Positions 4,116 to 19,248 of a DNA stretch of 32,000 nucleotides are shown piece after piece. Made by a program: the position numbers and the translations under genes. Under the pieces are notes generated by a model. That model searched no databases and was not told where the DNA came from. It saw nothing but the letters and a program-made list of their open reading frames with translations. Location of the stretch: contig CAKQHZ010000002.1 of the NCBI GenBank assembly GCA_934246625.1, positions 132,817 through 164,816 on the forward strand, in the 5' to 3' direction. Source of the stretch: an uncultured Alphaproteobacteria bacterium (GTDB lineage Bacteria; Pseudomonadota; Alphaproteobacteria; Rs-D84; CACZYB01). The first letter of the stretch is position 1; each line of letters opens with the position of its first letter.

Positions 4116-4138
4116 TGGTCTTCCTTTCTTTTTTACAT

Positions 4139-4267: not shown

Positions 4268-4451
4268 TTTGGTGGTGATTACACCTTTTTATTGTAATGG
4301 GCGACTAAACCCTAAATATAGAGACTAATCTATATTTGTTGATAGTATATATGATAAGTTTTTATGGCGCAAGTTGAAATTTTTTGTGTGAATTTTTCGT
4401 AGGGTTTTAAGATTTGTAATTGGCAAAAAATAAAGTGTTCTAAAATTGTTC

Positions 4452-4480
4452 TTGACTTTTTATCAAAAATAGTGTATAGT
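4452..4480 (+). promoter_or_regulatory. sigma70-like promoter of the virion block
   Basis: TTGACT (4452-4457), a 17-nt spacer, then TATAGT (4475-4480). Confidence 0.55.
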
Positions 4481-4492
4481 AAATTTCAACTA

Positions 4493-4562
4493 ATGGGATA
4501 AGTGTGCCCATTTTTATATTTAATTTAGCCTTCATATTTTCTTATGAAGGTTTTTCTTTTTT
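4493..4562 (+). promoter_or_regulatory. Leader with two consecutive terminator-like hairpins (motif TGGGATAAG..GCCCATTTTT, then agccttcata/tatgaaggt plus a T-run)
   Basis: Hairpin 1 is aatggg/cccatt (4492-4512), followed by T5. Hairpin 2 spans 4527-4551, followed by a T-rich run to 4562. The SD AGGAG and the ATG at 4575 follow directly. Confidence 0.45.
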
Positions 4563-4574
4563 AGGAGTTATGTT

Positions 4575-4862
4575 ATGAACGGAGGAATTGATTTATCCTG
4601 GTGGATAAGTGTTGTTGAAATACCCGTGTTCTTAGGTTTGTTTTGGATTATCCGAAATAATATGAGTTATTTGGAAAATTCGTTGAAACAACAAGAAGAA
4701 AAATCAAAACGAGAAATTGTTTCAATGATTGAAAATATTGCGTCTTTTCGTGTTGATGTGGCAATGAACTATGCCTCTATGTCTTATTTAAAAGACGTGG
4801 AAAATCGATTGACGGCTCATCTTCTTCGTATTGAAGAAAAAATTTCATCAGGAGGGTTTTGA
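4575..4862 (+). CDS. Small membrane-anchored coiled-coil protein (possibly holin/spanin-like)
   Basis: One N-terminal TM helix (WWISVVEIPVFLGLFWII) followed by a coiled-coil-like segment. An ATGA overlap couples it to the next gene, which is hydrolase-like. The function is inferred from context only. Confidence 0.55.
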   Translation: MNGGIDLSWWISVVEIPVFLGLFWIIRNNMSYLENSLKQQEEKSKREIVSMIENIASFRVDVAMNYASMSYLKDVENRLTAHLLRIEEKISSGGF

Positions 4863-5308
4863 TGGCTTTTATAGAAAACAGAAATAATCAAATTCGCAAA
4901 ATGAAACTTGATAATAATTTTAATAAATTAGTTTTTGCAAAAACAATTTTTAAAGTTGTTGGCGAAAATCAAAATATTGAATTGTTAAAAGCTGTTGCAA
5001 ATGTTGTGATGAACAGATTTTTATATGAATATGAAATTGATGATGAAATGACTTTTGTAAAATGTATTACAAATGTAGATTTGTTTCCATGTTGGAAAAA
5101 TCTTAAATCAATGGATGAAATTGATTTGCAAAATTGCTTTTTTAAAAAATGTTTTTCTTTGGCTTTAAAAATGTTGAATGGAAAAGTGGAAGATAATACT
5201 TTGTCTTCTATTAAATTTAAAAAAGTTTCTGAGTGTCCTGTATGGGCTGTGGGTTTAAAATATGTTAAGGCGATAGATGATTATCTTTTTTACAATAATT
5301 GTGATTAA
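4859..5308 (+). CDS. SleB/Hydrolase_2-family cell-wall hydrolase-like protein (endolysin candidate)
   Basis: The pattern AKTIFKVVGENQN..LLKAVANVVMNRF ... LFPCW ... ALKMLNGKVEDNT...CPVWA...IDDYLFY matches my recollection of the SleB-type hydrolase signature (LA.tiygEa...AVa.VilNR ... qFscw ... P.Wa ... h.Fy). Confidence 0.55.
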   Translation: MMAFIENRNNQIRKMKLDNNFNKLVFAKTIFKVVGENQNIELLKAVANVVMNRFLYEYEIDDEMTFVKCITNVDLFPCWKNLKSMDEIDLQNCFFKKCFSLALKMLNGKVEDNTLSSIKFKKVSECPVWAVGLKYVKAIDDYLFYNNCD

Positions 5309-5329
5309 CAATAAGCAAAGGAGTTTATT

Positions 5330-6064
5330 ATGACAGAGTTAAAAAATGATGAATTAAAAAAATCTGTGGAAAAAAAGGAAGAAAAAATTTCAAAATTAAA
5401 ACCTGAAAATGTTCCTGTGAAATTTTGGAATGATGCAAATGGTGAAATTCGTGTTGATGAACTTTTGAAATCATATTTGGAATTGGAAAAAAAGTTTAGT
5501 GAAGTTTCAAAAAATAAAAATGATAAAAATATTTTGGAACTTGCTCTTGAAACAGATGTGCCTGCTGGTGAATATCAAATTGAACTTCATCATAAACTTT
5601 TGACGATTGATGATAATGTTAATAAACGTTTGAAAGATGCAGGTTTTACAAATAAGCAAGCTCAACTTGTTTATGATTTGGGTGCTGAAATTATGATGCC
5701 TTTGATTGAGGAAATCAGCGGAGAATTTCGTATGTATCGAGAATTAGAAAAACTTGAAAAATACTTTGGTGGAGAAGAACGTTTTGATGAAATTTCACGA
5801 CAAATTTCAAAGTGGGCAGAAAAAAATATTCCATCAGAAATTTATAATTCTCTTAACAAATCTTATTATGGTGTGATTGCTTTGTTTAATATGATGAATG
5901 GTGGTAATGAACCATCAATGATAAATATGGTTGGCGAAAAAGAAAATATTTTAAATGAAAAAAAATTAAAAGATATGATGAACGATCCTCGTTATTGGAG
6001 AGATGGTGATAAAGATTTTATAAAAAAAGTTGATGATGGATTTAAAAATTTATATGACAGATAA
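5330..6064 (+). CDS. Acidic coiled-coil protein in the scaffold (T7 gp9) position
   Basis: 244 aa, E/K-rich and helical-looking, located upstream of the capsid gene as in T7-like phages. I recognised no sequence motif. Confidence 0.5.
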   Translation: MTELKNDELKKSVEKKEEKISKLKPENVPVKFWNDANGEIRVDELLKSYLELEKKFSEVSKNKNDKNILELALETDVPAGEYQIELHHKLLTIDDNVNKRLKDAGFTNKQAQLVYDLGAEIMMPLIEEISGEFRMYRELEKLEKYFGGEERFDEISRQISKWAEKNIPSEIYNSLNKSYYGVIALFNMMNGGNEPSMINMVGEKENILNEKKLKDMMNDPRYWRDGDKDFIKKVDDGFKNLYDR

Positions 6065-6158
6065 TTACTTTTTTGTATTTTTTTTGATAATTTTTATTGC
6101 AGTGTAATTTTGATTATGTTATACTAAACTTGTCTTTTGTTAAATAGGAGAGAGAAAT

Positions 6159-6500
6159 ATGTTTAAAAGTATAATTAAAAAAGCTAAATCTACTGCTAAA
6201 AAAGTTGAAACAAAAAAGGCAGAAGTTAAAAAGGCACCTGCAAAAAAAGTTGCAGTAAAAAAAGTAGCTGAAAAGAAAGCTCCAGCTAAGAAAGTAGTTG
6301 CTAAAAAGGCACCTGCAAAAAAAGTTGCAGTAAAAAAAGTGGCTGTGAAAAAAGCTCCTGCTAAAAAAGTAGTTGCTAAAAAAGCACCTGCAAAAAAAGT
6401 AGTTGTAAAAAAAATCGTAGTTAAAAAAGCATCTGTTAAAACTACTTCTGTAAAAAAAACAGTTAAACCAGTTGCAAAAAAAAAAGTAGCAAAGAAGTAG
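6159..6500 (+). CDS. Lysine/alanine-rich histone H1-like repeat protein (KKAPAKKV repeats)
   Basis: 113 aa, almost entirely K/A/V/P, with AKKAPAKKVAVKKVA-type repeats. An AGGAGAG SD precedes the ATG. The composition is typical of bacterial H1-like/AlgP-like DNA binders. Confidence 0.65.
   Translation: MFKSIIKKAKSTAKKVETKKAEVKKAPAKKVAVKKVAEKKAPAKKVVAKKAPAKKVAVKKVAVKKAPAKKVVAKKAPAKKVVVKKIVVKKASVKTTSVKKTVKPVAKKKVAKK
6228..6420. repeat. 75-bp tandem repeat (about 2.6 copies) encoding the KKAPAKK units
   Basis: aaaaaggcacctgcaaaaaaagt... restarts at 6228, 6303 and 6378, with few substitutions between copies. Confidence 0.8.
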
Positions 6501-6514
6501 TTGTTGATATTTCT

Positions 6515-7075
6515 TTGGTAAAATCAAATCCCAATAAAAAGGGTGATGAGGTAGTTCAAAAGAAAACTTCATTACTTTCTTCTTTGTTGGGATTTTTTTA
6601 TACGAAAACAAAAAAAATACTTAGTGTTTATTTGTCTTTGGTTGTAATTTTTTCTTTTGCATTTGCATTTTACAAAGAACTTAAGGTTTATAGTTTAGTT
6701 CGTTTTGCAATGAACCCATTGGAAATTATGTTTATAAGTGTTGTTGGTGCAGTATTCTTGATTATTAAATTATTTATACCTGTTTTAATTGTTGTGGTTA
6801 TTGCAAAATTATTTATGTTAAAGTCAAGAAAAATAAAGGTTCAACCAAAATTTAAAAAAAGTTTTAAAAGACAAACTTTGATTGCATTTGTGGTTTCATT
6901 TATTTTTGCAACTTTGTTTTATTATGATGTTGTTTTGGTTGCAAAATTTTCTCCACAACTTGTAAAATCTTCTGTTGAATTATTTGTGTTATTTTTTATA
7001 TCTGTTTTATTTACTTTGTCTTCTATGTATGGTGTTATCAAAGGAGTTGCACCAGTTTTGGAAGAAAAAAAATAA
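6515..7075 (+). CDS. Polytopic membrane protein (4-5 TM helices), unknown function
   Basis: The track ORF uses a non-ATG start, so the true start is uncertain. Hydrophobic helices include VYLSLVVIFSFAFAF, ISVVGAVFLIIKLFIPVLIVVVIAKLF, LIAFVVSFIFATLFYY and LFVLFFISVLFTL. Confidence 0.55.
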   Translation: MVKSNPNKKGDEVVQKKTSLLSSLLGFFYTKTKKILSVYLSLVVIFSFAFAFYKELKVYSLVRFAMNPLEIMFISVVGAVFLIIKLFIPVLIVVVIAKLFMLKSRKIKVQPKFKKSFKRQTLIAFVVSFIFATLFYYDVVLVAKFSPQLVKSSVELFVLFFISVLFTLSSMYGVIKGVAPVLEEKK

Positions 7076-7110
7076 TTCGATATACTTTTTAATTATACTT
7101 TGTAAAGTTT

Positions 7111-7140
7111 AAAATCCGTCAGTTTTTGGCGGATTTTTAA
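7111..7140 (+). terminator. Rho-independent terminator
   Basis: aatccgtc/ggcggatt hairpin followed by TTTTTAATTTT. Confidence 0.5.
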
Positions 7141-7165
7141 TTTTGCAAATAATACTTGCAAAAAT

Positions 7166-7219
7166 TGGGATAACATTTTTTTGCCCCATTTTACCGACCC
7201 TTTTATGGGTCTTTTTTTT
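7166..7219 (+). promoter_or_regulatory. Second copy of the dual-hairpin leader motif, directly upstream of the capsid gene
   Basis: TGGGATAAC (7166-7174) ... GCCCCATTTT (7183-7192), then the gaccc/gggtc hairpin (7196-7211) plus T8. The SD AGGAG and the ATG at 7243 follow. Confidence 0.4.
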
Positions 7220-7242
7220 AACAATAAAAAAGGAGATAAAAT

Positions 7243-8079
7243 ATGTCAATTTCTATTGATCAATCTTTTATAAAACAGTTTGAAGCAGAAGTTCATCTTG
7301 CTTTTCAACAAATGGGAACAAAACTTCGTTCTACTGTAAGAACAAAAAATGATGTAAAGGGAAGTTCAACAACTTTTCAAAAAGTAGGTAAGGGAACTGC
7401 AACTACAAAGGCAAGACACGGACTTGTTCCTGTGATGAATTTGGACCATACTCCTGTTGAATGTGTGCTTTCTGATTTCTATGCTGGTGATTGGATTGAT
7501 GAGCTTGATGAAATCAAAACAAATGTTGATGAACGTCGTGTTGTTGCAAGTGCTGGTGCCTATGCTTTGGGTCGCAAAAGTGATGAACTTATTATTTCAG
7601 AACTTAATCAAGCAAATGTGTCTGTTGCAATGGGTGATACTGGTTTAACAAAGGCAAAAATTCTTTCTGCTTTGGAATTACTTAACAATAGCGATGTGCC
7701 AGATGATGGTCAAAGATTTGCAGTTGTTGGTGTGCATCAATGGAATGAACTTTTGAATATGAAAGAATTTTCTTCTGCGGAATATGTTGGTGATACTTAT
7801 CCTTTACTTAAGGGAACAGAAACAAGAAAATGGCTTGGCATAAATTGGATTATGCATAATGCTTTGCCATTTGATGAAAAAACAAAAGCAAGAAATTGCT
7901 TTATATATCACAAAAATTCTGTGGGTCATGCATCTGGTTGTGATGTGAAAACTGATATTACATGGCATGGTGAAAGGGCTGCGCACTTTATTTCAAATTG
8001 TATGAGCCAAGGTGCAAAACTTATTGATAACACAGGTGTTGTGAAAATTATTTGTAAAGATACTTCTGTAATTGCTTAA
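7243..8079 (+). CDS. Major capsid protein, T7 gp10-like
   Basis: FIKQFEAEVHLAFQQ...RSTVRTKNDVKGSSTTFQKVGKG...DELDEIKTNVDERR...SAGAYALGRKSDELIISEL parallels my recollection of T7 gp10A (FLKVFGGEVLTAF...MVRSISSGKSAQFPVLGR...YDIEDAMNHYDVRSE...LGESLAMAADGAVLAEI). At 278 aa it is shorter than T7 gp10A. Confidence 0.8.
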   Translation: MSISIDQSFIKQFEAEVHLAFQQMGTKLRSTVRTKNDVKGSSTTFQKVGKGTATTKARHGLVPVMNLDHTPVECVLSDFYAGDWIDELDEIKTNVDERRVVASAGAYALGRKSDELIISELNQANVSVAMGDTGLTKAKILSALELLNNSDVPDDGQRFAVVGVHQWNELLNMKEFSSAEYVGDTYPLLKGTETRKWLGINWIMHNALPFDEKTKARNCFIYHKNSVGHASGCDVKTDITWHGERAAHFISNCMSQGAKLIDNTGVVKIICKDTSVIA

Positions 8080-8100
8080 CTTTAACAAAAGGAAATAAAA

Positions 8101-8349
8101 ATGGCTATTGATTCAAAAAATTTATCTGTACTTGCTTACTCAAATGGATTTACTTTGTGGCATTATAAAACAACCGATACAAAAACTGTTGTTGAAACAT
8201 CAGGTTATTTTGATAAGGTTGCGAATATTTTTAACGAAGGCGATATGATTTTTACATCTGTGCTTGGTGGTGATACAAAGCAAACAATTATTTATATTGT
8301 AAGTTCTGTTGAAAATGGTGTGGTTAGTGTTTCTAACTTACTTGCTTAA
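8101..8349 (+). CDS. Small protein following the capsid gene (possible decoration or minor capsid protein)
   Basis: 82 aa with an SD (AAGGAAA) 8 nt upstream. It sits between the capsid gene and a strong terminator. Function unknown. Confidence 0.5.
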   Translation: MAIDSKNLSVLAYSNGFTLWHYKTTDTKTVVETSGYFDKVANIFNEGDMIFTSVLGGDTKQTIIYIVSSVENGVVSVSNLLA

Positions 8350-8362
8350 TTTAGTGTGATAA

Positions 8363-8387
8363 ATCCCCAGTTTTGGGGATTTTTTTT
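8363..8387 (+). terminator. Rho-independent terminator after the capsid operon segment
   Basis: atcccc (8363-8368) pairs with ggggat (8375-8380), followed by T8. Confidence 0.65.
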
Positions 8388-8399
8388 AAGGAGAAATTT

Positions 8400-8957
8400 A
8401 TGAATAATTTTACAATGATTGATTTGTGTTCAAAGGCTTTGCATAAAATTGGAGCAAATGAAATTGTTTCGTTTGATGAAAATACTCCTGAAGCAGAATT
8501 AAGTAAAAGTATTTATCCTGTTTTAAAAAGGAAATTGCTTTCATCTTTTGTATGGAGTTTTGCAACAAAAGTTTTAAAACTTTCATTGATAGAAGATGAA
8601 AATCAAACAGAGTTTCAATATTGTTTTTTGCTTCCATCTGATTTTATAAGAGCGATTAAAATATCACCAAAAGTTCCATATAAAATTATTGAAAATAAAT
8701 TGGTTGCGAATGTGTCTGATATAGTATTGACGTATGTTTCTGATGTTGATGAGGAAAATTTTTCACCTGCATTTTTAAATGCGTTTATTTATATTTTGTC
8801 CGCAGAATTATCTCTTTCTTTGTTGGACGATGTAGCAAAATTTAATTTGTTTTATCGACTTTATAATTCAGAATTAAGAGAGGCAAGATTTTTGGATAGT
8901 GCACAAGAAACGGCAAAACATTTTGATAATTTTTCTTTAATTGATGTAAGGTATTAG
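8400..8957 (+). CDS. Tail tubular protein A / gatekeeper, T7 gp11-like
   Basis: I moved the start to the ATG at 8400, which has an AAGGAG SD; the track start at 8373 lies inside the terminator. IDLCSKALHKIGANEIVSFDENTPEAELSKSIYPVLKRKLLSSFVWSFA parallels T7 gp11 [46 protein letters not shown]. At 185 aa it is close to T7 gp11 (196 aa). Confidence 0.7.
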   Translation: MNNFTMIDLCSKALHKIGANEIVSFDENTPEAELSKSIYPVLKRKLLSSFVWSFATKVLKLSLIEDENQTEFQYCFLLPSDFIRAIKISPKVPYKIIENKLVANVSDIVLTYVSDVDEENFSPAFLNAFIYILSAELSLSLLDDVAKFNLFYRLYNSELREARFLDSAQETAKHFDNFSLIDVRY

Positions 8958-8965
8958 GTGTTGGT

Positions 8966-10870
8966 ATGTATAAACAAATTATTTCAAATACAAATTTTGC
9001 GTTTGGTGAAATTTCTCCTTATCTTTTTGGAAGGGGAGATATTGAGGCATATAAAAATGGTGCTATGACTATGTCAAATATGACAGTTATTCCCACAGGT
9101 GGAGTTAAGCGTCGAGCAGGATTAAAGTTTTTGTGTGATTTGCCAAATGCTGGAAAATTGATAAATTTTGATTACTCTTCTTTGGAAAATTTTTTACTTT
9201 ATTTCAGTGAAAATATTTTGTGGATTTATAATAGCATTGGTGAAAAGGTTGCAAGTCTTATGACTCCATTTTCCATTGCTCAATTATCAAATATACGATG
9301 GTCGCAAAAGGGAAATCAATTATATATTGTGCATAAAGATGTTGCACCAAAAGTTTTGAAATATTATCCTCTTGAAGATAATTGGATTTTGGAAGATTGG
9401 CAATATGCGGTAAGTGATAAAAACTTTTCTTGTGAACCATTTGCAAAGTTTGAAGACACAGAAAATATTATGATTACTCCGTCTGGAAAAACTGGTGAAA
9501 TTTCATTGGTTTCATCACAAAGTTTGTTTGATAATTCGTTTTTGGGTATTAAACTTCTTATTGATGGAGGTGAAGTTTGTATTACTCAAATAATTTCTGG
9601 AACAGAGGCAAAGGCTGTTGTAAAAGCAGAATTGAGTGCTTTGGTTGCAACTTCTTCTTGGCAAGAACAGGCATTTTCGCTTAAGCGTGGTTTCCCAAAA
9701 AGTATTGCATTTCATCAAAACAGATTGGTGATTGGTGGGTCAAAAAGTTTGGCGAATAGATTGTGGTTTTCAAAAACAGGAGAATATTTTAATTTTGATT
9801 TGGGTGAAGGTCTTGATGACGAAGCGATTGAGTTTGATTTATTGTCAGACAGAGTTAATGAAATTTTGTGTGTTTTTTCAGGAAAGCATTTACAAATTTT
9901 TACATCAGATTCTGAATGGATGGTGTCTGGGTATCCATTGACACCAACTTCATTGACGGTAAAGCAACAAACCAAAATTGGTTCTGTGGCAGATAAATTT
10001 ATTTCACCAAAACTTGTTGAAGGTTCAACTATATTTGTTGCAAAAAACAACAAAGAAATTCGAGAATTTTTTTATGGAGATATTTCTGAAAATTATTCGT
10101 CCGAAGATTTAATTTTGCTTTCAAATCATTTAATGAATAAACCAAAAGAATTGGATTACGATATTAAAAACCGAATGCTTTATGTTTTGCAAAGTGATGG
10201 GACTATATCAATATTGCTTACAAATAAAACCAATGCTATAAATGCGTGGTTTAAGTATGAAACTCAAGGTGAATTTATTTCGCTTAATGTGTTTAATAAT
10301 ACTTTATATGTTATTGTTAAACGAGATGATAAGTATTTTTTAGAGTATTTGTCCGATGATGTGATGACAGATTCTTCTTTGACTTTTTCTTTTGATACAA
10401 AGGTTGATAAGATTGTTGGAATTTCACATTTGAACAATAAAATTGTTAGTGTTAATGCGGATAATTATGTTTTTGATGTAAAGGTTGAAAATAATGAACT
10501 TATACTTCCTTTGTCAGCAAAAAATGTTTTTTTGGGATTAAGTTATACACATACTTTGTGTCCGTTGCCAGTGTTAATAAATGGGGTTGTCCCACCAAAA
10601 ATTGTGCGACTTTTTGAGTTGACTTTTCGTGTGGTTGATACTCCTTTATTACAAATTGATACTGGTGATGGAATAAGAAATATTACTTGTATGGATTTTG
10701 ATAAGGATAATATCCTTGATAATTCGTTGGTGCCATTTAATGGTGATATTCATATCAAAGCAAAAGGTTTGATTAAAAATTTTGAAGTCCCATTATGGAA
10801 GGTGCAAAGTTCAAAACCTTATAATGTAAAAATTTTAAATATTTCTGCAAAAATTGGTAGTGTAAAATAG
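8966..10870 (+). CDS. Tail tubular protein B / nozzle, T7 gp12-like
   Basis: It sits directly after the gp11-like gene. The N-terminus NFAFGEISPYLFGRGDIEAYKNGAMTMSNMTVIPTGGVKRRAG resembles the gp12-type opening (GGISQQP..R....G...NG.....G..KRP). 634 aa. Confidence 0.6.
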   Translation: MYKQIISNTNFAFGEISPYLFGRGDIEAYKNGAMTMSNMTVIPTGGVKRRAGLKFLCDLPNAGKLINFDYSSLENFLLYFSENILWIYNSIGEKVASLMTPFSIAQLSNIRWSQKGNQLYIVHKDVAPKVLKYYPLEDNWILEDWQYAVSDKNFSCEPFAKFEDTENIMITPSGKTGEISLVSSQSLFDNSFLGIKLLIDGGEVCITQIISGTEAKAVVKAELSALVATSSWQEQAFSLKRGFPKSIAFHQNRLVIGGSKSLANRLWFSKTGEYFNFDLGEGLDDEAIEFDLLSDRVNEILCVFSGKHLQIFTSDSEWMVSGYPLTPTSLTVKQQTKIGSVADKFISPKLVEGSTIFVAKNNKEIREFFYGDISENYSSEDLILLSNHLMNKPKELDYDIKNRMLYVLQSDGTISILLTNKTNAINAWFKYETQGEFISLNVFNNTLYVIVKRDDKYFLEYLSDDVMTDSSLTFSFDTKVDKIVGISHLNNKIVSVNADNYVFDVKVENNELILPLSAKNVFLGLSYTHTLCPLPVLINGVVPPKIVRLFELTFRVVDTPLLQIDTGDGIRNITCMDFDKDNILDNSLVPFNGDIHIKAKGLIKNFEVPLWKVQSSKPYNVKILNISAKIGSVK

Positions 10871-10891
10871 GTTAAATGAAAGGATAATAAT

Positions 10892-11338: not shown

Positions 11339-11350
11339 GAGAGTTATGTT

Positions 11351-12073
11351 ATGGGTAAAAATAGTTTAGTAAAACATATATATATTTGTGATGGTGTGCA
11401 AAAAAATTTTGACTATCAATTTGAAAGTTTTTCAAAAACAAGTATAAAAGTTTTTATTGATAACTTGATGATAAAATCTGGGTATGAGATAGTTCCATTT
11501 TCTGACAAGGTTGGTGGAAAAATTATTTTTAATACTCCTCCTTTGAAAGGGAAAGTTTTATCGATTATTCGTGAGTTAGATTTTTCACGAAGTTGTGATT
11601 TTCAAACAGGTGGAATTTTTCGTGCTGAAGATTTGAACTATGAACTTAACTATAATATTGCTTGTCTTAATCAAGTCAATGATGTTTTAACTTTGGCAGT
11701 TAAACTTTCACCACTTGATACAAAAATAAATCCAGTATTGCCAAAGGCAAAAGCAGGCTATGCAATTGTTTGGAATGATACAGAAGATGGATTTTCAAAT
11801 TTAGATGTTAATATTACAGAGCAAGTTCGTTATGTTGAAGATTGCACAAATCTTGTTGAAAATCTTTATAATGATTTAAGTGATTTATTTGCAAGCAATT
11901 CTGATATAGGAGTATTGGGGTTTGTGAATAATTTGCTTACGATTTTAAAAGAACATCATGGTGAAGCGTTTGTTGATTTTCAAAATCTTAATTGTGTAGC
12001 AAATGATGTTATTGATTTTGGAAATGTGTCTGATGAATCACAAATTAGTGTGAAAGATAATGGAATACTTTGA
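11351..12073 (+). CDS. Tail fibre protein, T7 gp17 N-terminal (tail-attachment) domain only
   Basis: YICDGVQKNFDYQFESFSKTSIKVFID...LSIIRELDFSRSCDFQTGGIFRAEDLNYELN parallels T7 gp17 YQLDGSNRDFNIPFEYLARKFVVVTL...[31 protein letters not shown]. Only 240 aa, against 553 aa in T7. Confidence 0.7.
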   Translation: MGKNSLVKHIYICDGVQKNFDYQFESFSKTSIKVFIDNLMIKSGYEIVPFSDKVGGKIIFNTPPLKGKVLSIIRELDFSRSCDFQTGGIFRAEDLNYELNYNIACLNQVNDVLTLAVKLSPLDTKINPVLPKAKAGYAIVWNDTEDGFSNLDVNITEQVRYVEDCTNLVENLYNDLSDLFASNSDIGVLGFVNNLLTILKEHHGEAFVDFQNLNCVANDVIDFGNVSDESQISVKDNGIL

Positions 12074-12668
12074 TAAAAAAATCAGTTTTTTGGATTTTTT
12101 GAAAGATTGGTATAAAACTCAGGGACTTTTGTTTCCAGAACATCATAAAAAAATTGCAAAATGGTTGGAGAGTGTTTATTTTTCTGATAAAAAGCGAGGG
12201 CTTTTGCTTGCTTTTCGAAGTAGTGGAAAGTCAACGGTGGTTGGGCTTTTTTGTTCGTGGCTTTTGTATATAAATCCGAATTTAAGGATTTTGGTTGTTG
12301 CAGCAGATACTATGTTGGCAAAAAAGATGGTGCGAAATATCAAATATATTGTTGAACTTCACCCATTATTGGAAAGTATTAGACCAAAGAAAAAGCAAGA
12401 ATGGGCATCTGGAAGTTTTACCGTGGAAAGAAATTTGGTGTTAAGGGACCCATCTGTGATGGCTGTGGGACTTTTATCAAATTCGACTGGAAGCAGGGCT
12501 GATGTTATTATTTGTGATGATGTGGAGGTGCCAAAAAATTGTGATACTTATCAAAAACGGTGTGATTTGAGAGAGAAATTGTTGGAGTTTAATTTTATTT
12601 TGGTGCCTAATGGTATGCAAATTTTTATTGGGACACCGCATACTTTGGATACTATTTATAAAGTTTAG
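12060..12668 (+). CDS. Terminase large subunit, N-terminal fragment (Walker A/B ATPase core); split gene
   Basis: LLAFRSSGKSTV (Walker A), PNLRILVVAAD, DPSVMAVGLLSNSTGSRADVIICDDVEVPKNC (Walker B) and IFIGTPHTLDTIYKV-stop closely track T7 gp19 ([73 protein letters not shown]). The ORF stops exactly after the LYK-equivalent residues. Confidence 0.85.
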   Translation: MEYFDKKISFLDFLKDWYKTQGLLFPEHHKKIAKWLESVYFSDKKRGLLLAFRSSGKSTVVGLFCSWLLYINPNLRILVVAADTMLAKKMVRNIKYIVELHPLLESIRPKKKQEWASGSFTVERNLVLRDPSVMAVGLLSNSTGSRADVIICDDVEVPKNCDTYQKRCDLREKLLEFNFILVPNGMQIFIGTPHTLDTIYKV

Positions 12669-12729
12669 TATTGATTTTAGGGGAATTTTTTAGTTGTTTT
12701 ATACAAAAAAATATTTTTTTAAAATTTTA

Positions 12730-12757
12730 TTGACAAATTCGAATTAGTTTGTATAAT
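12730..12757 (+). promoter_or_regulatory. Near-consensus sigma70 promoter with no ORF behind it
   Basis: TTGACA (12730-12735), a 16-nt spacer, then TATAAT (12752-12757). Confidence 0.6.
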
Positions 12758-12763
12758 GAGGTT

Positions 12764-12894
12764 GTTTCGTTAATAAGAAAAAAGAATTTGCCGAGACGAC
12801 CCCTCATTTCGGCAGATCTGGTGAAAGCCAGTAATAATCCCCTAAGTCATTCCCTCCTTATTTTCTCTCTCCTCGACTTGGGGGATATTTTTTT
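12764..12894 (+). ncRNA. Candidate sRNA with a CU-rich (anti-SD-like) loop
   Basis: It lies downstream of the consensus promoter. Hairpins are tgccga/tcggca (12789-12814) and ctgg/ccag. A 10-bp stem atcccctaag/cttgggggat (12837-12846 / 12877-12886) encloses the 30-nt loop tcattccctccttattttctctctcctcga, followed by T7. No credible ORF is present; the track ORF 12749..12931 starts with TTG inside the -10 box. Confidence 0.35.
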
Positions 12895-13133
12895 GTCGGG
12901 ACGCCCGAGTAATCTCACAAAGGCAAACTAGAATTTTCTACTAACCCCGTAGAAAATTAAGTTTTTGTTTGTTCGGTTTCTCTCTCCTCGACTTGGGGGA
13001 TATTTTTTTAGTTCAGAAAAGTTAGGATTTGTGAGCTTTTGTTGTGTTTTTGAGGGAAAATAGTCAAATTTGTAAAAAATGTGTGAAAAATTAGAATTTT
13101 CTGTTGAAATTTTGGTTTTAAATTGCTAAAAAA

Positions 13134-13358
13134 GAATCAGTTTTTGAAAAGATTCTCGAATCGATAGTAAAATTTAAAAAAAAGAATCGATTCTTGGTGG
13201 TTTTTTAAGGTTTTATTTTATAGACAATTTGAAATTGCAAAAAGAATCTTTTAATTTTTAATATGTTGTTTTTACAGCATTCTTTTTTGTTTTTTGATGG
13301 CTAATAAGTTGCCAAAAAAAGAATCTCTTGACTTTTTTTGTCGATTGCTTTAAGAATC
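13134..13358. promoter_or_regulatory. Cluster of AAGAATC / GANTC motifs, including the palindrome AAGAATCGATTCTT
   Basis: GANTC sites lie at 13134, 13151, 13158, 13184, 13189, 13244, 13321 and 13354, mostly within A-run+GAATC words. The perfect 14-bp palindrome lies at 13182-13195. Confidence 0.5.
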
Positions 13359-13738
13359 GTTGTATGAGGCGAGTGGAAATTTTCCATTTTGTTTCAAACA
13401 TATTCCCTGTTGCGTTCCTTTTCTCTCCTTTCCTCCTTCTCTCCTCGCAACGGGGGATTTTTTTATACTTGAGTTTTTTTCTGACTGATTCCCTTCGTTA
13501 ATGTCTCACTTACGATTTGTTAAGATGCTAGTTTTTTGCAGGGTGGCGTGGCAACAAGCTAAGCAAACCTAAAACTTTTCACTAATGCCGTTCAAAGTTT
13601 AAGGATAGCTATGCTTGGTGTCTCTTCGCAACGGGGGATTTTTTTTATATAATCTCTTCTCAAGATAGTTAAATTTGCATAAAATGAAAAAAATAACTTG
13701 CGTTTTGGGAAAATATAGGTTATAAACTTGTTATCTTT

Positions 13739-13814
13739 GGCTAGGTAGCTCAGTCGGTAGAGCAAAGGACTGAAAATCCTTGTGTCGGCAGTTCGATTCT
13801 GCCCCTCGCCACCA
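13739..13814 (+). tRNA. tRNA-Phe(GAA): tRNA-Phe (anticodon GAA), CCA encoded
   Basis: 76 nt. The D arm is GCTCAGTCGGTAGAGC, the anticodon arm aagga-CTGAAAA-tcctt, and the T arm ggcag-TTCGATT-ctgcc, ending in ACCA. There is one U:C mismatch at acceptor pair 4:69. Confidence 0.9.
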
Positions 13815-13847
13815 TTATTGGTCCCCCGTTTGGGGGATTTTTTATTT

Positions 13848-14141
13848 GTGTCGGCAGTTCGATTGTCCTCGTGATTGAAAATCACTCGTTCGTCCCGTAA
13901 GCCTAAAACTTCGCCAAAGGCTCGTGTTTAGGCAACTATCGACTCCTGCCCCTCGCCACCACTATTGGTCCCTCATTTGGGGGATTTTTTATTTGTGTCG
14001 GCAGTTCGATTGTCCTCGTGATTGAAAATCACTCGTTCGTCCCGTAAGCCTAAAACTTCGCCAAAGGCTCGTGTTTAGGCAACTATCGACTCCTGCCCCT
14101 CGCCACCATTATTGGTCCCCCGCTTGGGGGATTTTTTATTT
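13848..14141. repeat. 147-bp tandem repeat x2 (plus a 12-nt start of a third unit), each unit a tRNA-Phe 3' half interrupted by 81 nt
   Basis: gtgtcggcagttcgatt recurs at 13782 (inside the tRNA), 13848 and 13995, and partially at 14142. The period is exactly 147 bp, and the units differ at only a few positions in the terminator stem. Confidence 0.9.
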
Positions 14142-14222
14142 GTGTCGGCAGTTTATTGACTTTTAAACCTTCGTTAAATGAGTTTGATGTCATATAGTTT
14201 CTTTGCAAAGTAAGGCAAAACC

Positions 14223-14231
14223 TGTGGATAA
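14223..14231. promoter_or_regulatory. Perfect DnaA box (TGTGGATAA = complement of TTATCCACA) upstream of the ftsZ promoter
   Basis: An exact 9-mer located 33 nt upstream of the putative -35 element. Confidence 0.5.
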
Positions 14232-14263
14232 AAGTTTTTTTTCTTAATTTTTGTTTTCTTTTC

Positions 14264-14292
14264 TTAACATTTGGCTTTTTTTATGCTATAGT
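14264..14292 (+). promoter_or_regulatory. sigma70-like ftsZ promoter
   Basis: TTAACA (14264-14269), a 17-nt spacer, then TATAGT (14287-14292). The SD AAGGAGAGAG precedes the ATG at 14322. Confidence 0.5.
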
Positions 14293-14321
14293 TTATTTGA
14301 GAAAAAATTAAGGAGAGAGAT

Positions 14322-16004
14322 ATGATAGGAGAAGGAAACTTCGGCTATAATTCACAAAATGATGATGAAATTCAAAATTTTATTCCACGAATCACTGTAA
14401 TGGGTGTTGGTGGTGCTGGTTGTAATGCTGTTGGCAATATGATTTCTCAAGGTATTGATGGTGTGGATTTTGTTGTGGCAAATACTGATGCTCAATCTTT
14501 GATGTTGTCAAAGGCTCCTCGTAAAATTCAACTTGGAAAACAAACTACTCGTGGATTTGGTGCTGGCTCAAAACCAGAAGTTGGTAAAACTGCGGCTGAA
14601 GAATCTTTGAATGAAATTGCAGATGTCGTTAAAAATGCAAATATTCTTTTCTTGACTGGTGGTATGGGTGGTGGAACTGGAAGTGGTGCTATACCTGTGA
14701 TTGCATCTGTGGCAAAGGAAAAGGGAATTTTGACTATTGCAATTATTACAACTCCTTTTGATTTTGAAGGTGAAAAGAAAAAACGTATTGCAGAGGAGGC
14801 AATAGCTGAATTACTTCCTAATGTGGATTGTGTTATTACTTTGCCAAATCAAAATTTGTTCAAGGTTGCGGATAAACAAATGTCATTTATCAATGCCTTT
14901 AAACTTTCTGATAATGTCCTTTATGAAGGTGTTAGAAATATTACAGATTTGATTATGAAACCTGGTTTGATTAACCTTGATTTCGCAGATATAAGAACTG
15001 TGATGGAAGGTCAGGGAAAAACCATTATTGGAACAAGTGTTCAAAGTGGTGAAGATAGGGCATTGAAAGCAGTGAAGGGTGCTTTGCTTAATCCTCTTCT
15101 TTCTAATGAAAGTATTAGTGGGGCAAAGGGTATTTTGGTAAATATTACTGGTAATGCTGATAATCTTTCTTTGGAAGAAGTTAATGATATTATGAATACA
15201 ATTCGTGCCGATATAAATTCAAATGATGTTAATTTCGGCTTTGGAACTTGCTTTGACCCATCTATGGGTGATAGCTTGAAAGTTGCTATTATTGCAACTG
15301 GTATTAACGGTGATAATGTTAAAACAGATGTAAATACAACAAAAACAGAAGTTAATAATACTTCTTATAATTCATTTAATAATGTTGCAACTTCTAAACC
15401 TTACTCATTTACAAATATTGAAGAAAAAAAAGAAGAAGTTCGTGTTGAGCCAAAACCAATGGAAAAGCCTATGCCTAGTTTTATGGAAGAAACAGTTGTA
15501 AGTGATAATAAACTTGATAATTTCTTTAAAACCGGTGATGAAAAGGATATTCAAGCCTTTATTGATGAGGAAGCAGAAAAACTTAATGTCGCAAGTTCTG
15601 TTTCAAATGAACTTTTTTCTGATGAAAAAAATAGTATTTTAGATAGTAATGAAGATACTTCTTCTTTGGATAATGTATCTTTGAATGGCAATGGTGATGA
15701 TGACCATGATCCTGAACCACCAAAGGGAAAAAAGAAAAATCCTTTGTCTTCTTTCTTTGATATGATTGGTGAAAAGGATAGTGATGATACTTTTTTTGAT
15801 GATGTGGAAAAAGATGATAATGGTGATGTAAAATTTGAAAATCAATCTGAAATATCAGATAAAAAAGAAGATGATAATGTCGTTTTCTTGGCTGGAAATT
15901 TGGATACAAAGGACCCAGATGATAAGCAAATTGATTTGATGGAAATGATAAAGAAAATGGAAGAAACTTTGGAAATTCCTGCGATATTTAAAAAAGGTTC
16001 ATAA
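14322..16004 (+). CDS. ftsZ: Cell division protein FtsZ (long acidic C-terminal linker)
   Basis: GVGGAGCNAV, the tubulin signature GGMGGGTGSGA, and NLDFADIRTVM are all present. An acidic linker of about 230 aa ends in LEIPAIFKK, which looks like the conserved C-terminal peptide. Confidence 0.95.
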   Translation: MIGEGNFGYNSQNDDEIQNFIPRITVMGVGGAGCNAVGNMISQGIDGVDFVVANTDAQSLMLSKAPRKIQLGKQTTRGFGAGSKPEVGKTAAEESLNEIADVVKNANILFLTGGMGGGTGSGAIPVIASVAKEKGILTIAIITTPFDFEGEKKKRIAEEAIAELLPNVDCVITLPNQNLFKVADKQMSFINAFKLSDNVLYEGVRNITDLIMKPGLINLDFADIRTVMEGQGKTIIGTSVQSGEDRALKAVKGALLNPLLSNESISGAKGILVNITGNADNLSLEEVNDIMNTIRADINSNDVNFGFGTCFDPSMGDSLKVAIIATGINGDNVKTDVNTTKTEVNNTSYNSFNNVATSKPYSFTNIEEKKEEVRVEPKPMEKPMPSFMEETVVSDNKLDNFFKTGDEKDIQAFIDEEAEKLNVASSVSNELFSDEKNSILDSNEDTSSLDNVSLNGNGDDDHDPEPPKGKKKNPLSSFFDMIGEKDSDDTFFDDVEKDDNGDVKFENQSEISDKKEDDNVVFLAGNLDTKDPDDKQIDLMEMIKKMEETLEIPAIFKKGS

Positions 16005-16024
16005 AAATAATTTTTTAAACTTTG

Positions 16025-16059
16025 TCCCCCTTTGATTTTTTTCAAAGGGGGATTTTTTT
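16025..16059 (+). terminator. Rho-independent terminator after ftsZ
   Basis: tccccctttga pairs with tcaaaggggga (an 11-bp stem), followed by T7. The portal gene's SD and ATG follow only about 20 nt later. Confidence 0.7.
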
Positions 16060-16079
16060 AACTTAAATAAGGAGTTAAT

Positions 16080-17576
16080 ATGATTGAAAAGGAAATTTTT
16101 GATAAAAATTTTGTTGATGATGTCTATAACAGATATTTGAATGCAATAGAGAAAAGGTCAGTGTGGGAAAGTTATTGGGAAGAATGTTATGAATATGCTT
16201 TGCCACAAAAAAGTGGAACTTTTAATGGTGAAAATTTTTCTAATGTAAAGAAAAATACAAATGTTTTTGATTCCACTGCGGAATCTGCAGTTGACAGACT
16301 TGCAAGTAGTCTTCTTTCCCAACTTACTCCACCATGGTCAAAATGGTTTGGGTTGGAATTTGGTATTGATATAGCTGATGATGATAAAAAGGAAAAGTAT
16401 CTTCAACTTGAAAATATTGAAAAGATTTTGCAATCTCATTTGGATAGGTCAAATTTTTATGTGGAAGCTCATCAATGCTATTTGGATTTAATTACGGTTG
16501 GAACTGCGGTTATGTTATTTGAAGAAAATGCAGTAGGTGAAAATTCCGCATTTAAGTTTACTTCTGTGCCAATGAATGAAGTTGCGTTTGAAGAAAATAC
16601 GAATGGAAAGTTGGATACTGTATTTCGTCGTTCTTATGTCTCACTTGCAAATTTAAAAATAAGGTTTGCCAATGTTATTTTTGATGAAAAACAACAGGAA
16701 ATTATTTCCAAAAACCTTGATAAAAAAGTGTATGTGATAGAGGCTGTGTTGCCACGAATAACTTCTTCTGGACAACAGGGATATAATTATATTGCGTTTA
16801 TTGATGATGTAGAAAATATTTTTAATAGCTCTGTTAAAATAATTCTTAAAACAGGAGTATTTGCAAATTCTCCGTTTATTTGTTTCAGATGGCAAAAGGT
16901 TAGTTCTGAAATTTATGGAAGGTCTCCTGTGATGAAGGCTTTGCCAGATATTAAAACCGCAAATAAAGTTGTGGAACTTATTCTTAAAAATGCGTCTATT
17001 GCAGTAAGTGGTATTTGGCAAGCAGATGATGATGGCGTTTTGAATCCGCAAAATATAACTCTTGCTCCAGGAACAATTATTCCAAAGGCAGTTGGTTCTA
17101 GTGGGCTTACTCCACTTAGAAGTGGTGCCGATTTTGATGTTTCTCAGTTGGTATTGTCTGATTTGCGTGCAAAGATAAATCATTGTTTACTTGTGGATCA
17201 ATTAGATGTGTCAAATAATTTTAAAATGACTGCAACAGAAGTGATGGAAAGAATAAATCAAATATCTCGTGTGTTGGGGGCAACCTATGGCAGACTTCAA
17301 TCTGAATTTTTGACACCTGTGGTTATTCGTGCAATTTCTATTTTAAAAAGACGTGGTGAAATTTCAGATATACTTGTTAATGGATATGAAGTTGATTTGA
17401 AATATCAATCTCCACTTGCTCAAAATCAAATTGTTCGTGATGCAGAAAATATTTTGAATTGGATAAAAACTTTGTCAGAAGTGTGTGGTGATGCAACAAG
17501 TGTTATTGATAAAAAAGCGGTTGCGTTATATTTGGGAAAAGTTTTTGGTATTTCAGAACGATTGATTTGTGCATAG
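16080..17576 (+). CDS. Portal (head-to-tail connector) protein, T7 gp8-like
   Basis: VYNRYLNAIEKR..W.ECYEYALPQ, VDRLASSLLSQLTPPWSKWF, YGRSPVMKALPDI and MTATEVMERINQISRVLGATYGRLQSEFLTPVV parallel T7 gp8 (VYERLKNDR...CAQYTIPS, LNNLASKLMLALFPMQTWM, YGRSYIEEYLGDL, VTAEEIRYVASELEDTLGGVYSILSQELQLPLV). Confidence 0.85.
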   Translation: MIEKEIFDKNFVDDVYNRYLNAIEKRSVWESYWEECYEYALPQKSGTFNGENFSNVKKNTNVFDSTAESAVDRLASSLLSQLTPPWSKWFGLEFGIDIADDDKKEKYLQLENIEKILQSHLDRSNFYVEAHQCYLDLITVGTAVMLFEENAVGENSAFKFTSVPMNEVAFEENTNGKLDTVFRRSYVSLANLKIRFANVIFDEKQQEIISKNLDKKVYVIEAVLPRITSSGQQGYNYIAFIDDVENIFNSSVKIILKTGVFANSPFICFRWQKVSSEIYGRSPVMKALPDIKTANKVVELILKNASIAVSGIWQADDDGVLNPQNITLAPGTIIPKAVGSSGLTPLRSGADFDVSQLVLSDLRAKINHCLLVDQLDVSNNFKMTATEVMERINQISRVLGATYGRLQSEFLTPVVIRAISILKRRGEISDILVNGYEVDLKYQSPLAQNQIVRDAENILNWIKTLSEVCGDATSVIDKKAVALYLGKVFGISERLICA

Positions 17577-17586
17577 TGAGGATATT

Positions 17587-18465
17587 ATGGAGGAAGATTT
17601 TAGCTTGCCTTTTTTGGCTGGGTTTGATGTCCTTAAAATTCCAGTTATTGAAAATGGGATTCCTGTATGGCCTGAAAAATTCCCGATTGAAAAAATTGAG
17701 GAATTAAAGGTTCGGGTTGGAATGACAAAATTTTCTTCGCAAATGCTACTTAATCCTGTGCAATTAAATAAAGGGCGATTTGATATAAACAAGTTAAAAT
17801 TTTATAATTCTGATTTGTGTGTAGAGGAACATAATCACCTTTTGACCTTTACAATAAATGGTAAAAAAGTTGTCAGTTGTTCGTGTTGGTGGGATCCTTC
17901 GTATGGTTCAATCGGTGGTGATGGAAGTGTTATATCTGTTGTCTTTATTGATGTGGAAGGGCATTACTATCTTCATGACATAAAATATCTTTATCATTCG
18001 GATAAGAAAAAGGAAGAAATTCAATCGGCATTGGAACAATGTCAGCAGGTTGGTGAGTTTGTTAAGGCAAACTATATACCTTCGGTTTATGTTGAAACGA
18101 ATGGTATTGGTAAATTTTTACCAGAGTTTTTAAGAAATGAGTTTTTGAAAATGGGAATTTCCGCTGGGGTTGTTGAAAAGGTTTCTAGGGTTTCAAAAAA
18201 TCTTAGGATTTTAGATGCTTTTGATGTGATTACTTCGGCAGGATATTTATATGTTAATGAAAAGGTGAAAAATACCCCTTGGGTTGCGGAATTTTGTGAT
18301 TGGGGTGTTGATTCAAAAGCTCATGATGATGGACTTGATAGTGTGGCTGGTGCAATTTCGTCTGTGCCAGCCAAGTTGCCTATTTCTGTGTTGGCAAAAC
18401 AAAGAAAAGTAAGTTTTGCAGGGAAAACGTATAGGGTAAAGACAAATTTTGATATAGACTTTTGA
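17587..18465 (+). CDS. Terminase large subunit, C-terminal fragment (rest of the ATPase domain plus RNase H-like nuclease); split gene
   Basis: I prefer the ATG at 17587, which has a GAGGA SD 5 nt upstream; the track uses the GTG at 17569, overlapping the portal stop. IPVWPEKFP...MTKFSSQMLLNP matches T7 gp19 IIWPALYP...GKAGFTLQFMLNP. The nuclease motifs are WWDPSYGSIGGDGSVISVV, VYVETNGIG and KAHDDGLDSVAGAI (T7: ALAHDDRLDALA). Confidence 0.85.
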   Translation: MEEDFSLPFLAGFDVLKIPVIENGIPVWPEKFPIEKIEELKVRVGMTKFSSQMLLNPVQLNKGRFDINKLKFYNSDLCVEEHNHLLTFTINGKKVVSCSCWWDPSYGSIGGDGSVISVVFIDVEGHYYLHDIKYLYHSDKKKEEIQSALEQCQQVGEFVKANYIPSVYVETNGIGKFLPEFLRNEFLKMGISAGVVEKVSRVSKNLRILDAFDVITSAGYLYVNEKVKNTPWVAEFCDWGVDSKAHDDGLDSVAGAISSVPAKLPISVLAKQRKVSFAGKTYRVKTNFDIDF

Positions 18466-18484
18466 TTTTTTAGACAAATTATTA

Positions 18485-18513
18485 TTGACAAATAATGTTT
18501 TTAAGTTTATATT
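18485..18513 (+). promoter_or_regulatory. sigma70-like promoter
   Basis: TTGACA (18485-18490), a 17-nt spacer, then TATATT (18508-18513). Confidence 0.45.
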
Positions 18514-18542
18514 TAAGCTATATTTAATAAAGAGGTCAAAAT

Positions 18543-19184: not shown

Positions 19185-19208
19185 GTTTTTAAAATAAATT
19201 TTATTATA

Positions 19209-19235: not shown

Positions 19236-19248
19236 ATTGGAGGAATAT

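Follow-up and report, generated by a model that had tools for sequence, protein, structure and literature searches.

Gene transfer agents (GTAs) are known as a handful of independent domestications, long-tailed apart from the case of Faecalibacterium, and Rhodospirillales-type and gut lineages have been reported to carry few or no clusters of the RcGTA kind. Here we analyse a locus of T7-type virion genes in a 32,000-nt stretch of DNA of ~30% GC ('the window') from an uncultured alphaproteobacterium, in which the large terminase (TerL) is encoded in two separate pieces. We consider it rather probable that this locus is a domesticated, vertically inherited remnant of a T7-supergroup podovirus, reduced to the building, filling and release of particles and most likely GTA-like.

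The RcGTA type of Rhodobacter, Caulobacter and Dinoroseobacter resembles the locus in being a chromosome-fixed set of head, tail, packaging and lysis genes that lacks those for replication and integration, in its vertical inheritance under purifying selection and in its host class; a GTA_holin_3TM gene is also present in the sister clade of the locus. RcGTA is, however, siphovirus-like and has a prohead protease and a capsid of the HK97 type, whereas the locus is T7-type and of unrelated ancestry, with a split TerL, host genes inside it and no detected small terminase (TerS). It is not a relative of RcGTA (Rhodogtaviriformidae), because the capsid (PF19821), portal (PF12236) and tail (gp11/gp12) families differ and a T7-type scaffold stands in place of the protease.

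FpGTA of Faecalibacterium prausnitzii, a podovirus-like GTA-like element that was presented in 2026 as the first of its morphology, has been validated experimentally by particles of ~40 nm, DNA of 8.4–8.9 kb and proteomics (PMC12946183). Like the present locus it belongs to a gut bacterium and has compact operons with TerL, portal, scaffold and capsid genes and a proposed podovirus-like morphology (PMC12946183), but it resides in a Firmicute and combines a putative TerS with an unsplit TerL. An earlier reading of the window (the original prediction) held that a maintained podovirus-type particle locus would be new; since FpGTA has been published (PMC12946183), this holds only for the lineage and the host class. 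Literature searches found no paper on this family, on a split large terminase or on a podovirus-type GTA in Alphaproteobacteria, and this lineage and its split terminase appear to be new.

Three other systems are comparable in part. PBSX of Bacillus is, like the locus, chromosomally fixed and not self-propagating; a probable link to the SOS response, and particles that package host DNA and leave by lysis, would be further features in common. PBSX is nevertheless myovirus-like and contiguous over ~28 kb, with its own regulators and no sequence relationship to the locus. Pelagiphages of the HTVC010P type and 'Hodr' have the same structural families in the order TerL-portal-scaffold-capsid-small protein-gp11-gp12, but are real phages of 34–35 kb with ~20 kb of further genes. 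Bordetella phage BPP-1 shares the family of a Bbp19-like small protein (PF25181) and an Mtd_N-type fibre domain, the latter found in L175 (L-numbers such as L175 and L010 are labels of relatives' loci). BPP-1, in contrast, is a complete temperate phage with a diversity-generating retroelement; neither a reverse transcriptase nor a template repeat was seen at the locus.

Gene content of the locus

Between 4575 and 19842 all genes are on the + strand and all open reading frames (ORFs) are open. A T7-supergroup structural module is present, with portal (PF12236), scaffold (PF05396), gp11, gp12, a gp17-type N-domain and a gp19-type terminase:

4575–4862, +: phrog_29007 protein (2e-20) of 95 aa with one transmembrane helix and a coiled coil; lysis-associated, presumably holin- or spanin-like
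4859–5308, +: SleB-type cell-wall hydrolase (Hydrolase_2; PF07486, 1e-4), candidate endolysin
5330–6064, +: scaffolding protein of the T7 gp9 family (PF05396, 1.3e-8)
6159–6500, +: lysine-rich protein with KKAPAKKV repeats (seen in the translation), specific to the split-terminase clade
6515–7075, +: multi-pass membrane protein, possible holin; clade-specific, conserved in position, transmembrane segments read from the sequence
7243–8079, +: major capsid protein (PF19821, 3e-77)
8101–8349, +: small conserved head-associated protein (phrog_18004), 3' of the capsid gene family-wide
8373–8957, +: gp11-like tail adaptor (phrog_394, 4e-38)
8966–10870, +: gp12-like nozzle (phrog_376, 2.5e-112; PF25675)
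10892–11338, +: gp14-like internal virion protein (phrog_418, 3e-5; weak PF24072)
11351–12073, +: short tail fibre of 240 aa, T7 gp17 N-domain plus ~125 aa (PF03906, 2.5e-5; phrog_1640, 4e-11)
12060–12668, +: N-terminal piece of the large terminase, ATPase core (phrog_38 positions 270–458)
12730–13647, +: tandem small RNA (sRNA)-like units occupying the terminase break; CU-rich (anti-Shine-Dalgarno-like), with four terminators and nine GANTC sites
13739–13814, +: tRNA-Phe, host gene inside the locus
14322–16004, +: ftsZ, host gene inside the locus (PF00091, PF12327), followed by a strong terminator (16024–16053)
16080–17576, +: portal (PF12236, 2e-119)
17569–18465 (likely start ATG 17587), +: C-terminal piece of the large terminase, lid and RNase-H-like nuclease (phrog_38 positions 458–715)
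18543–19184, +: clade-specific protein (orf213) with an N-terminal transmembrane helix and a C-terminal beta-solenoid-like region
19237–19488, +: Bbp19-like small phage protein (PF25181, 1.8e-6; family profile, 1e-17)
19591–19842, +: HTH_3 (Cro/CI-type) regulator, possibly part of the locus (PF01381, 5e-10)

The original prediction thus described a real locus: portal, scaffold, capsid, gp11, gp12 and the gp17 N-domain were recovered by profile hidden Markov models (HMMs). Its single gp19 counterpart proved to be two ORFs, a split that it had overlooked, as it had the lysis genes and the wider family. Its limits (4452–18465) were too narrow, as the locus reaches at least 19488 with the Bbp19-like gene and probably 19842 with the HTH_3 gene, and a lysis pair forms its 5' end. 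Profile searches also bore out the core genes that had been recognized around and within it: accB, accC, tRNA-Phe, ftsZ and mipZ are host genes, followed by truA-fmt-def, and the host carries mipZ together with a long-linker ftsZ. In GC and GC3 the phage-like genes equal the neighbouring housekeeping genes. AGGAG-type Shine-Dalgarno (SD) sites precede nearly all genes, and the predicted short overlaps are present, of 4 nt (4859/4862), 14 nt (12060/12073) and 8 nt (17569/17576).

The flanks could be read for ~2 kb upstream in the same species, ~5 kb upstream in L175 and ~10 kb downstream. As predicted for the 32 kb, no polymerase, integrase or gene of ejection-protein size was found in the window, nor in these flanks. 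HMMs built from 4–131 orthologues found no TerS, repressor, GTA_holin_3TM or small canonical genes in the readable DNA of the split-terminase clade, the sole exception being a repressor fragment in L179. With no replication, integration, repressor or recognizable small-terminase gene, the locus cannot propagate itself. A single resolvase gene lies 16 kb downstream; the unknown ORFs at 25–32 kb, searched for further phage genes, match nothing in PHROG or Pfam, and GenBank phage records contain near-identical DNA only for the tRNA.

Some of the less familiar genes are better defined by their relatives. The phrog_29007 gene adjoins the hydrolase gene throughout the family, and the match of the hydrolase, weak in the window, is clear in its orthologues, the gene being kept in L175, L176, L178 and L179. 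The gene for the lysine-rich protein has the same position in L175, L011, L176 and L034, and profile searches gave no family match for the multi-pass membrane protein at 6515–7075. The gp14-like protein is also matched by the profile of the canonical o122 protein (6e-8). The orf213 gene has its own promoter (18485–18513) and terminator (19208–19229), and a single-sequence AlphaFold2 (AF2) model of its product is of low confidence (pLDDT 56). The HTH_3 gene is present in L012 and L014 and absent from L010 and L011.

The split large terminase

TerL is encoded by two ORFs lying 4.9 kb apart, 12060–12668 (TerL-N) and 17569–18465 (TerL-C). In an alignment with an unsplit 501-aa relative, TerL-C takes up exactly where TerL-N stops, and no residues are lost at the break, which falls in an 11-residue linker directly after ATPase motif III (GTPH). 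TerL-N keeps Walker A, Walker B and motif III and aligns to residues 41–211 of T7-type gp19 (E = 2e-25). Its AF2 model, made from an alignment of 41 homologues, is a compact ATPase core (pLDDT 89) that superposes on the PhiV-1 terminase 8dgc with a TM-score of 0.81. Since the N-terminal piece is the ATPase core, the C-terminal piece carries the lid subdomain and the nuclease; the acidic motifs of the nuclease are kept, and WDPS, ETNG and HDDGLDS are retained.

Homologues of the N-terminal piece, ~195–215 aa long, form more than 100 sequence clusters ranging from 100% to 51% identity to the window, on contigs of up to 455 kb, and in five lineages the break point is identical and the catalytic motifs are kept. 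The arrangement around it varies. In L178 the TerL pieces are adjacent, with 237 nt between them, and ftsZ separates TerL-C from the portal; the pieces of L179 stand apart, with dnaB and two further genes in between, and TerL-C precedes the portal. The same break point in the window, its relatives, L178 and L179 points to a single ancient fission followed by differing rearrangements. We infer that insertion of an sRNA gene caused the fission, because a CU-rich unit fills the L178 gap and units of this kind start right after TerL-N in the window and its close relatives. Rejoining of TerL by recombination in the style of the skin element was considered and rejected: no direct or inverted repeats link the break points, and there is no recombinase in the locus.

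A covalent link between the ATPase and nuclease parts is regarded as a requirement of packaging motors, and a natural two-polypeptide terminase would be a ready-made experiment on this idea.

Conservation and selection

At least 10 further lineages, which come from the human gut, the rumen and the termite gut, have the same rearranged locus with every ORF open. Contigs of up to 262 kb in human gut metagenomes, including those of the Hadza, encode proteins 100% identical to those of the window, so that its host is a gut bacterium. In L175, L010–L014, L174 and L176 the order is accBC, then the lysis pair, scaffold, lysine-rich protein, membrane protein, capsid, small protein, gp11, gp12, gp14, fibre and TerL-N, then (tRNA-Phe) and ftsZ, and finally portal and TerL-C; L178, L179 and L034 have variants of it. 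The embedding of ftsZ is alike in L175, L010–L014, L174, L176 and L178, and tRNA-Phe lies near the break in all seven relatives with a detected tRNA.

The locus is inherited vertically with its host and is under purifying selection, as follows from its constant site and order, from a divergence parallel to that of ftsZ and accC and from dN/dS values of 0.09–0.31. Identity to the window across the relatives is 82, 77, 65, 63, 61 and 53% for ftsZ and 83, 78, 72, 69, 62 and 62% (down to about 60%) for the portal; accC is 90 and 83% identical, and across the clade the capsid ranges from 88 to 74% and TerL-N from 83 to 61%. By the Nei-Gojobori method dN/dS is 0.14–0.23 for the portal, 0.15 for the capsid, 0.09–0.20 for TerL-N and 0.15–0.31 for TerL-C, against 0.17–0.25 for ftsZ and 0.26 for fmt among the host genes, values that are rough and if anything too high because dS is ~1, near saturation. 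Only gp14 and the fibre evolve faster (0.5–0.7). Within the species, synonymous and non-synonymous differences number 34:11 in the phage-like genes and 26:11 in the host genes.

The proposal that the locus is maintained has therefore stood up. Relatives do not lack it or carry frameshifted copies, at least 10 lineages having it with open ORFs; dN/dS, far from being near 1, is like that of ftsZ and fmt; and no missing module lies just outside, within ~2–5 kb upstream or ~10 kb downstream. We could not derive a parsimonious series of events for the history of rearrangement.

It seems that genes essential for replication or division have come to lie within the locus more than once. L179 has dnaB and a helix-turn-helix (HTH) gene among phage-like blocks (10615–13864), and L178 has an Amidase_3 gene and ftsZ (11793–15983).

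L175, whose portal is 78% identical to that of the window, has on its other strand (803–2315, -), ~5 kb upstream of the cluster, genes for a 399-aa tail-fibre-like protein (Mtd_N, phrog_9648) and for a 100-aa phrog_2687 protein. The two may be a detached receptor-binding module.

The wider family and its nearest phages

Relatives of the portal occur at no fewer than 567 places in species-representative genomes, the best 80 outside the window's clade being 49–56% identical, and hosts of the family include Magnetospirillum, Azospirillum, Terasakiella, Thalassospiraceae and many gut metagenome-assembled genomes. The capsid is matched by 3489 proteins at E ≤ 1e-30 and is ~70% identical to the wider homologues listed; in all homologues listed portals (470–505 aa) and capsids (271–304 aa) are full length. 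The unrearranged order of the family is TerL-phrog_29007-hydrolase-portal-Bbp19-scaffold-capsid-small protein-gp11-gp12, so that the Bbp19-like gene adjoins the portal in these relatives.

A gut sister clade of 16 species carries an unsplit, intact version of ~12 kb at one chromosomal site, between prfB-yhdP and abhydrolase-SBP-mlaC-gltX. This element includes a divergently transcribed CI/LexA-like S24 repressor, three small genes and a Pfam GTA_holin_3TM gene; no integrase and no replication genes were found in it. One of the three small genes, phrog_31793, always lies directly 5' of TerL and is the TerS candidate of this clade. The element has diverged together with its flanks (yhdP 56–73%, portal 66–80%, capsid 74–91%), and element and flanks are likewise common to the Azospirillum species. 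At the Magnetospirillum site only repressor-portal-Bbp19-scaffold is left.

Chromosomal relatives in other alphaproteobacterial orders have portals of 50–55% and capsids of ~70% identity, whereas the nearest isolated phage, the pelagiphage Hodr with its 34 kb genome, has a portal 35% and a capsid 47% identical. Most matches in IMG/VR are provirus calls of 15–25 kb from the genomes of isolates; the window type has no close relative among them, the best match reaching 53% identity. Judged by these comparisons, the window is a derived form within a large family of host-fixed, stripped-down podovirus clusters.

Some observations on single members of the family may be added. In Magnetospirillum a ParA/MipZ-like ATPase gene lies directly 3' of the scaffold gene (L007 12594–13220; also L022 and L025), and in the window the true mipZ adjoins the locus on the opposite strand, a parallel that may be coincidence. 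The record MT838907.1 (L180; 'Bacteriophage sp.', unverified), a 5-kb scaffold from human faeces in Mexico, holds the unsplit gut version, with a portal 49% and a capsid 62% identical to those of the window. Particles with 10 kb of DNA from Azospirillum are reportedly siphovirus-like. As a product of the present family these particles (cited in PMC3899980) remain an unverified lead only.

Expression signals

The following signals may govern expression of the locus:

4437–4451, +: LexA-type direct repeat GTTC-N7-GTTC, GTTCTAAAATTGTTC, abutting the promoter
4452–4480, +: sigma-70 promoter TTGACT-17-TATAGT (promoter scan), conserved in L175 and L176
4487–4574, +: leader RNA with a hairpin GGGAUAA..CCCA (4495–4510), then an intrinsic terminator (4527–4552) before the first SD
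7111–7137 and 7196–7211, +: terminator hairpins around a second GGGATAA..CCCA (7167–7188), just 5' of the capsid SD; conserved in L175
8361–8382, +: terminator after the capsid gene and its small neighbour gene

The promoter and the post-capsid terminator had both been predicted; the former was recovered in the promoter scan and is kept in relatives, and the latter follows the small neighbour of the capsid gene as well as the capsid gene itself. GTTC-N7-GTTC, the alphaproteobacterial LexA box, has its sole match in the 32 kb here (0.58 expected), and L175 and L176 each have one mismatch. The leader terminator has a 10-bp stem, which in L175 is preserved by a compensatory change; L176 carries another hairpin in the corresponding position. 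The pattern GGGATAA-N(2-14)-CCCA occurs exactly twice in the window (0.05 expected), and both copies are conserved in L175. Each lies just 5' of an intrinsic terminator preceding a phage-like gene block, and they may be nut- or put-like antitermination signals. There are 27 terminator-like sites where 6.4 are expected, nearly all on the + strand. The portal has no room for a promoter of its own, because its SD starts ~10 nt after the strong ftsZ terminator, a layout kept in five relatives. Control by CtrA, as in RcGTA, found no support, there being no TTAA-N7-TTAAC site in the 32 kb.

Nature of the locus and possible function

By genomic criteria the locus is a GTA-like element: phage-derived structural and packaging genes are resident, and in the window and readable flanks modules for replication, integration and self-transfer are absent. 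Other classes were considered and rejected. It is not a T7-like phage proper (Autographiviridae), because it has no single-subunit RNA polymerase, nor a T7-type replication module, in the window or readable flanks. An ordinary or decaying prophage would not fit the lack of an integrase and of bracketing repeats, the presence of the locus in all relatives and the openness of every ORF. Phage satellites (phage-inducible chromosomal islands, PICIs, including capsid-forming ones) do not agree with its fixed chromosomal position and its lack of integrase, replication and helper-sensing genes, and a tailocin does not agree with its conserved capsid, portal, scaffold and terminase.

We favour a domesticated particle system because a mutually dependent set of capsid, tail, packaging and lysis genes is conserved while the genes for autonomous propagation are gone. 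Packaging of host DNA, in a GTA-like or PBSX-like manner, would be the best explanation of this set, and a function in gene transfer is plausible. In the mechanism that we propose, the sigma-70 promoter at 4452–4480, overlapped by the LexA-type box, would fire after DNA damage. LexA and the leader terminator would otherwise restrain this strong promoter; once active, a modified polymerase would read through the leader terminator and the many + strand terminators of the sRNAs, tRNA-Phe and ftsZ as far as the Bbp19-like or the HTH gene, so that 4575–19842 would form an antitermination unit like the late operon of lambda. T7-like proheads would assemble on the portal, and the two terminase pieces would associate and package host DNA without sequence specificity, which we propose because no TerS or pac system remains; that the lysine-rich repeat protein is an unspecific DNA binder replacing TerS is speculation. 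Lysis by the hydrolase and the membrane proteins would then set free a short-tailed, GTA-like particle. Since the capsid protein of the closest phage, whose genome measures 34 kb, is 47% identical, a capacity of ~30–35 kb is probable for the ancestral head.

Several points weigh against this reading. The flanks were read for ~10 kb on each side at most. Searches of the locus brought to light neither a small terminase nor an ejection protein of the gp15/gp16 type nor a clear receptor-binding domain, and L012 and L014 have no fibre gene; with a short or absent fibre and no ejection proteins, delivery of DNA to a recipient is uncertain. No antiterminator was found, and the LexA-type box, exact only in the window's species, could be due to chance, as 48 of 100 shuffles gave at least one match somewhere in the 32 kb. 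To our knowledge, there is no tested precedent for a terminase cut inside the ATPase domain, and the near-saturation of dS, mentioned above, also counts here.

The lack of ejection proteins and the short fibre, absent in L012 and L014, which argue against efficient DNA delivery, would be better accommodated if particles were made in a selected role other than gene transfer, such as SOS-induced killing or competition of the PBSX kind, or lysis and DNA release with incidental packaging. The LexA-type box at the promoter, the CI/LexA-like repressor of the sister clade and the retained lysis genes would suit such a role too. We nevertheless hold it to be unlikely, since few genes are conserved as well as those for the portal and the TerL pieces, so that DNA packaging itself is under selection, and no toxin or killing function is visible in the sequence. 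Retention of only some genes for host functions that involve no particle, through co-transcription with ftsZ or through the embedded sRNAs, is highly improbable. It could account for a portal without its own promoter directly behind the ftsZ terminator, and for essential genes (ftsZ; dnaB in L179) inside the locus, but not for the joint conservation of scaffold, capsid, portal, adaptor, nozzle and both TerL pieces as a mutually dependent set, which 16 sister-clade species keep with no embedded host gene.

Components of GTAs and phages can be split across a genome, and the Mtd_N gene of L175, 5 kb from its cluster, suggests that those of this family can be dispersed. As the inspection covered ~10 kb on either side, one may thus imagine that the locus is part of a still-complete phage or helper-dependent element, with its missing genes elsewhere or on a helper, that still spreads horizontally. 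The fixed chromosomal positions and flanks across species, a divergence in step with host genes, the host genes inside, the absence of an integrase or att structure bracketing the locus and the lack of a close relative in IMG/VR make this very unlikely. That the locus is an inert prophage remnant, unusually well preserved but functionless today, is scarcely credible: the rearranged order, the split terminase and the loss of TerS and repressor are typical marks of decay, but no lineage has frameshifts or truncations, dN/dS of 0.1–0.3 is that of housekeeping genes and conservation extends over a divergence at which ftsZ is only 53–63% identical. The layout of promoter, SD sites and terminators is conserved as well, and the split form occurs in more than 100 clusters.

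If the reading as a domesticated, GTA-like particle system is true, a vertically inherited podovirus-type particle locus across many Alphaproteobacteria would be an added major GTA lineage, 'prophage' calls in such genomes would be read differently and never-cultured gut alphaproteobacteria would have a route of gene flow. The presence of ftsZ or dnaB inside the operon raises the question of whether particle production is coupled to the cell cycle or insulated from it. In a wider and doubtful form, which we offer tentatively, Alphaproteobacteria would carry a second, ancient GTA-like lineage of podovirus origin, with a large subclade in which insertion of an sRNA gene into the linker gave a two-piece terminase, control by host LexA replaced the lost repressor and ftsZ or dnaB came to lie inside a terminator-studded, antiterminated late operon.

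Small-RNA-like units and tRNA-Phe repeats

The unit at 12730–12894 (+) has a perfect sigma-70 promoter, TTGACA-16-TATAAT (12730–12757), is ~130 nt long and ends in ...CAUUCCCUCCUUAUUUUCUCUCUCCUC and a terminator; a second unit at 12896–13009 has the same terminator. Both lie directly after TerL-N also in L175, L011, L012 and L014. The 237 nt that separate the TerL pieces of L178 are taken up by a related CU-rich unit, which has a promoter and a terminator of its own. A further sRNA-like unit at 13365–13466 (+), with the promoter cTTGACT-N17-TAAGAATC and a GANTC site inside the -10, is found also in L175, L011, L010, L012, L014, L174 and L034. Its terminator has a 13-bp stem around an invariant CU-rich, anti-SD-like loop of 31 nt, UUCCUUUUCUCUCCUUUCCUCCUUCUCUCCU, which is identical even in high-GC relatives with proteins ~55% identical. 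Rfam matched only the tRNA, even at E ≤ 1, and gave no known family for the sRNA-like units.

Nine GANTC (CcrM-type) sites fall within the 225 nt of 13134–13358, while the whole window has 44 against 81 expected. Several of these sites are within repeated TTGC-N-AAAAAGAATC motifs upstream of sRNA-like units, tRNA-Phe and ftsZ.

From the 3' end of tRNA-Phe a 147-nt tandem repeat extends over 13799–14153 in two full copies and a partial third. Each copy consists of the last 16 nt of tRNA-Phe, a terminator hairpin, the 5' half of a T-arm and ~80 further nt; the repeats may have been left by successive integrations at the 3' end of the tRNA, or may be elements derived from it.

Genes for secreted proteins

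Two paralogous pairs of secreted proteins, of 497 + 133 aa and 331 + 143 aa, are encoded at 26429–29888 (+) of the window; they have signal peptides and Gly/Ala/Ser-rich C-terminal regions, and matched nothing in Pfam or PHROG. Secreted cysteine-rich proteins with eukaryote-like repeats of the Ephrin-receptor/TNFR type are encoded at 3651–4151 (-) of the window, in L091 (18–740) and in L013 (5657–6481); their genes adjoin the phage-like cluster and in L013 lie inside it.

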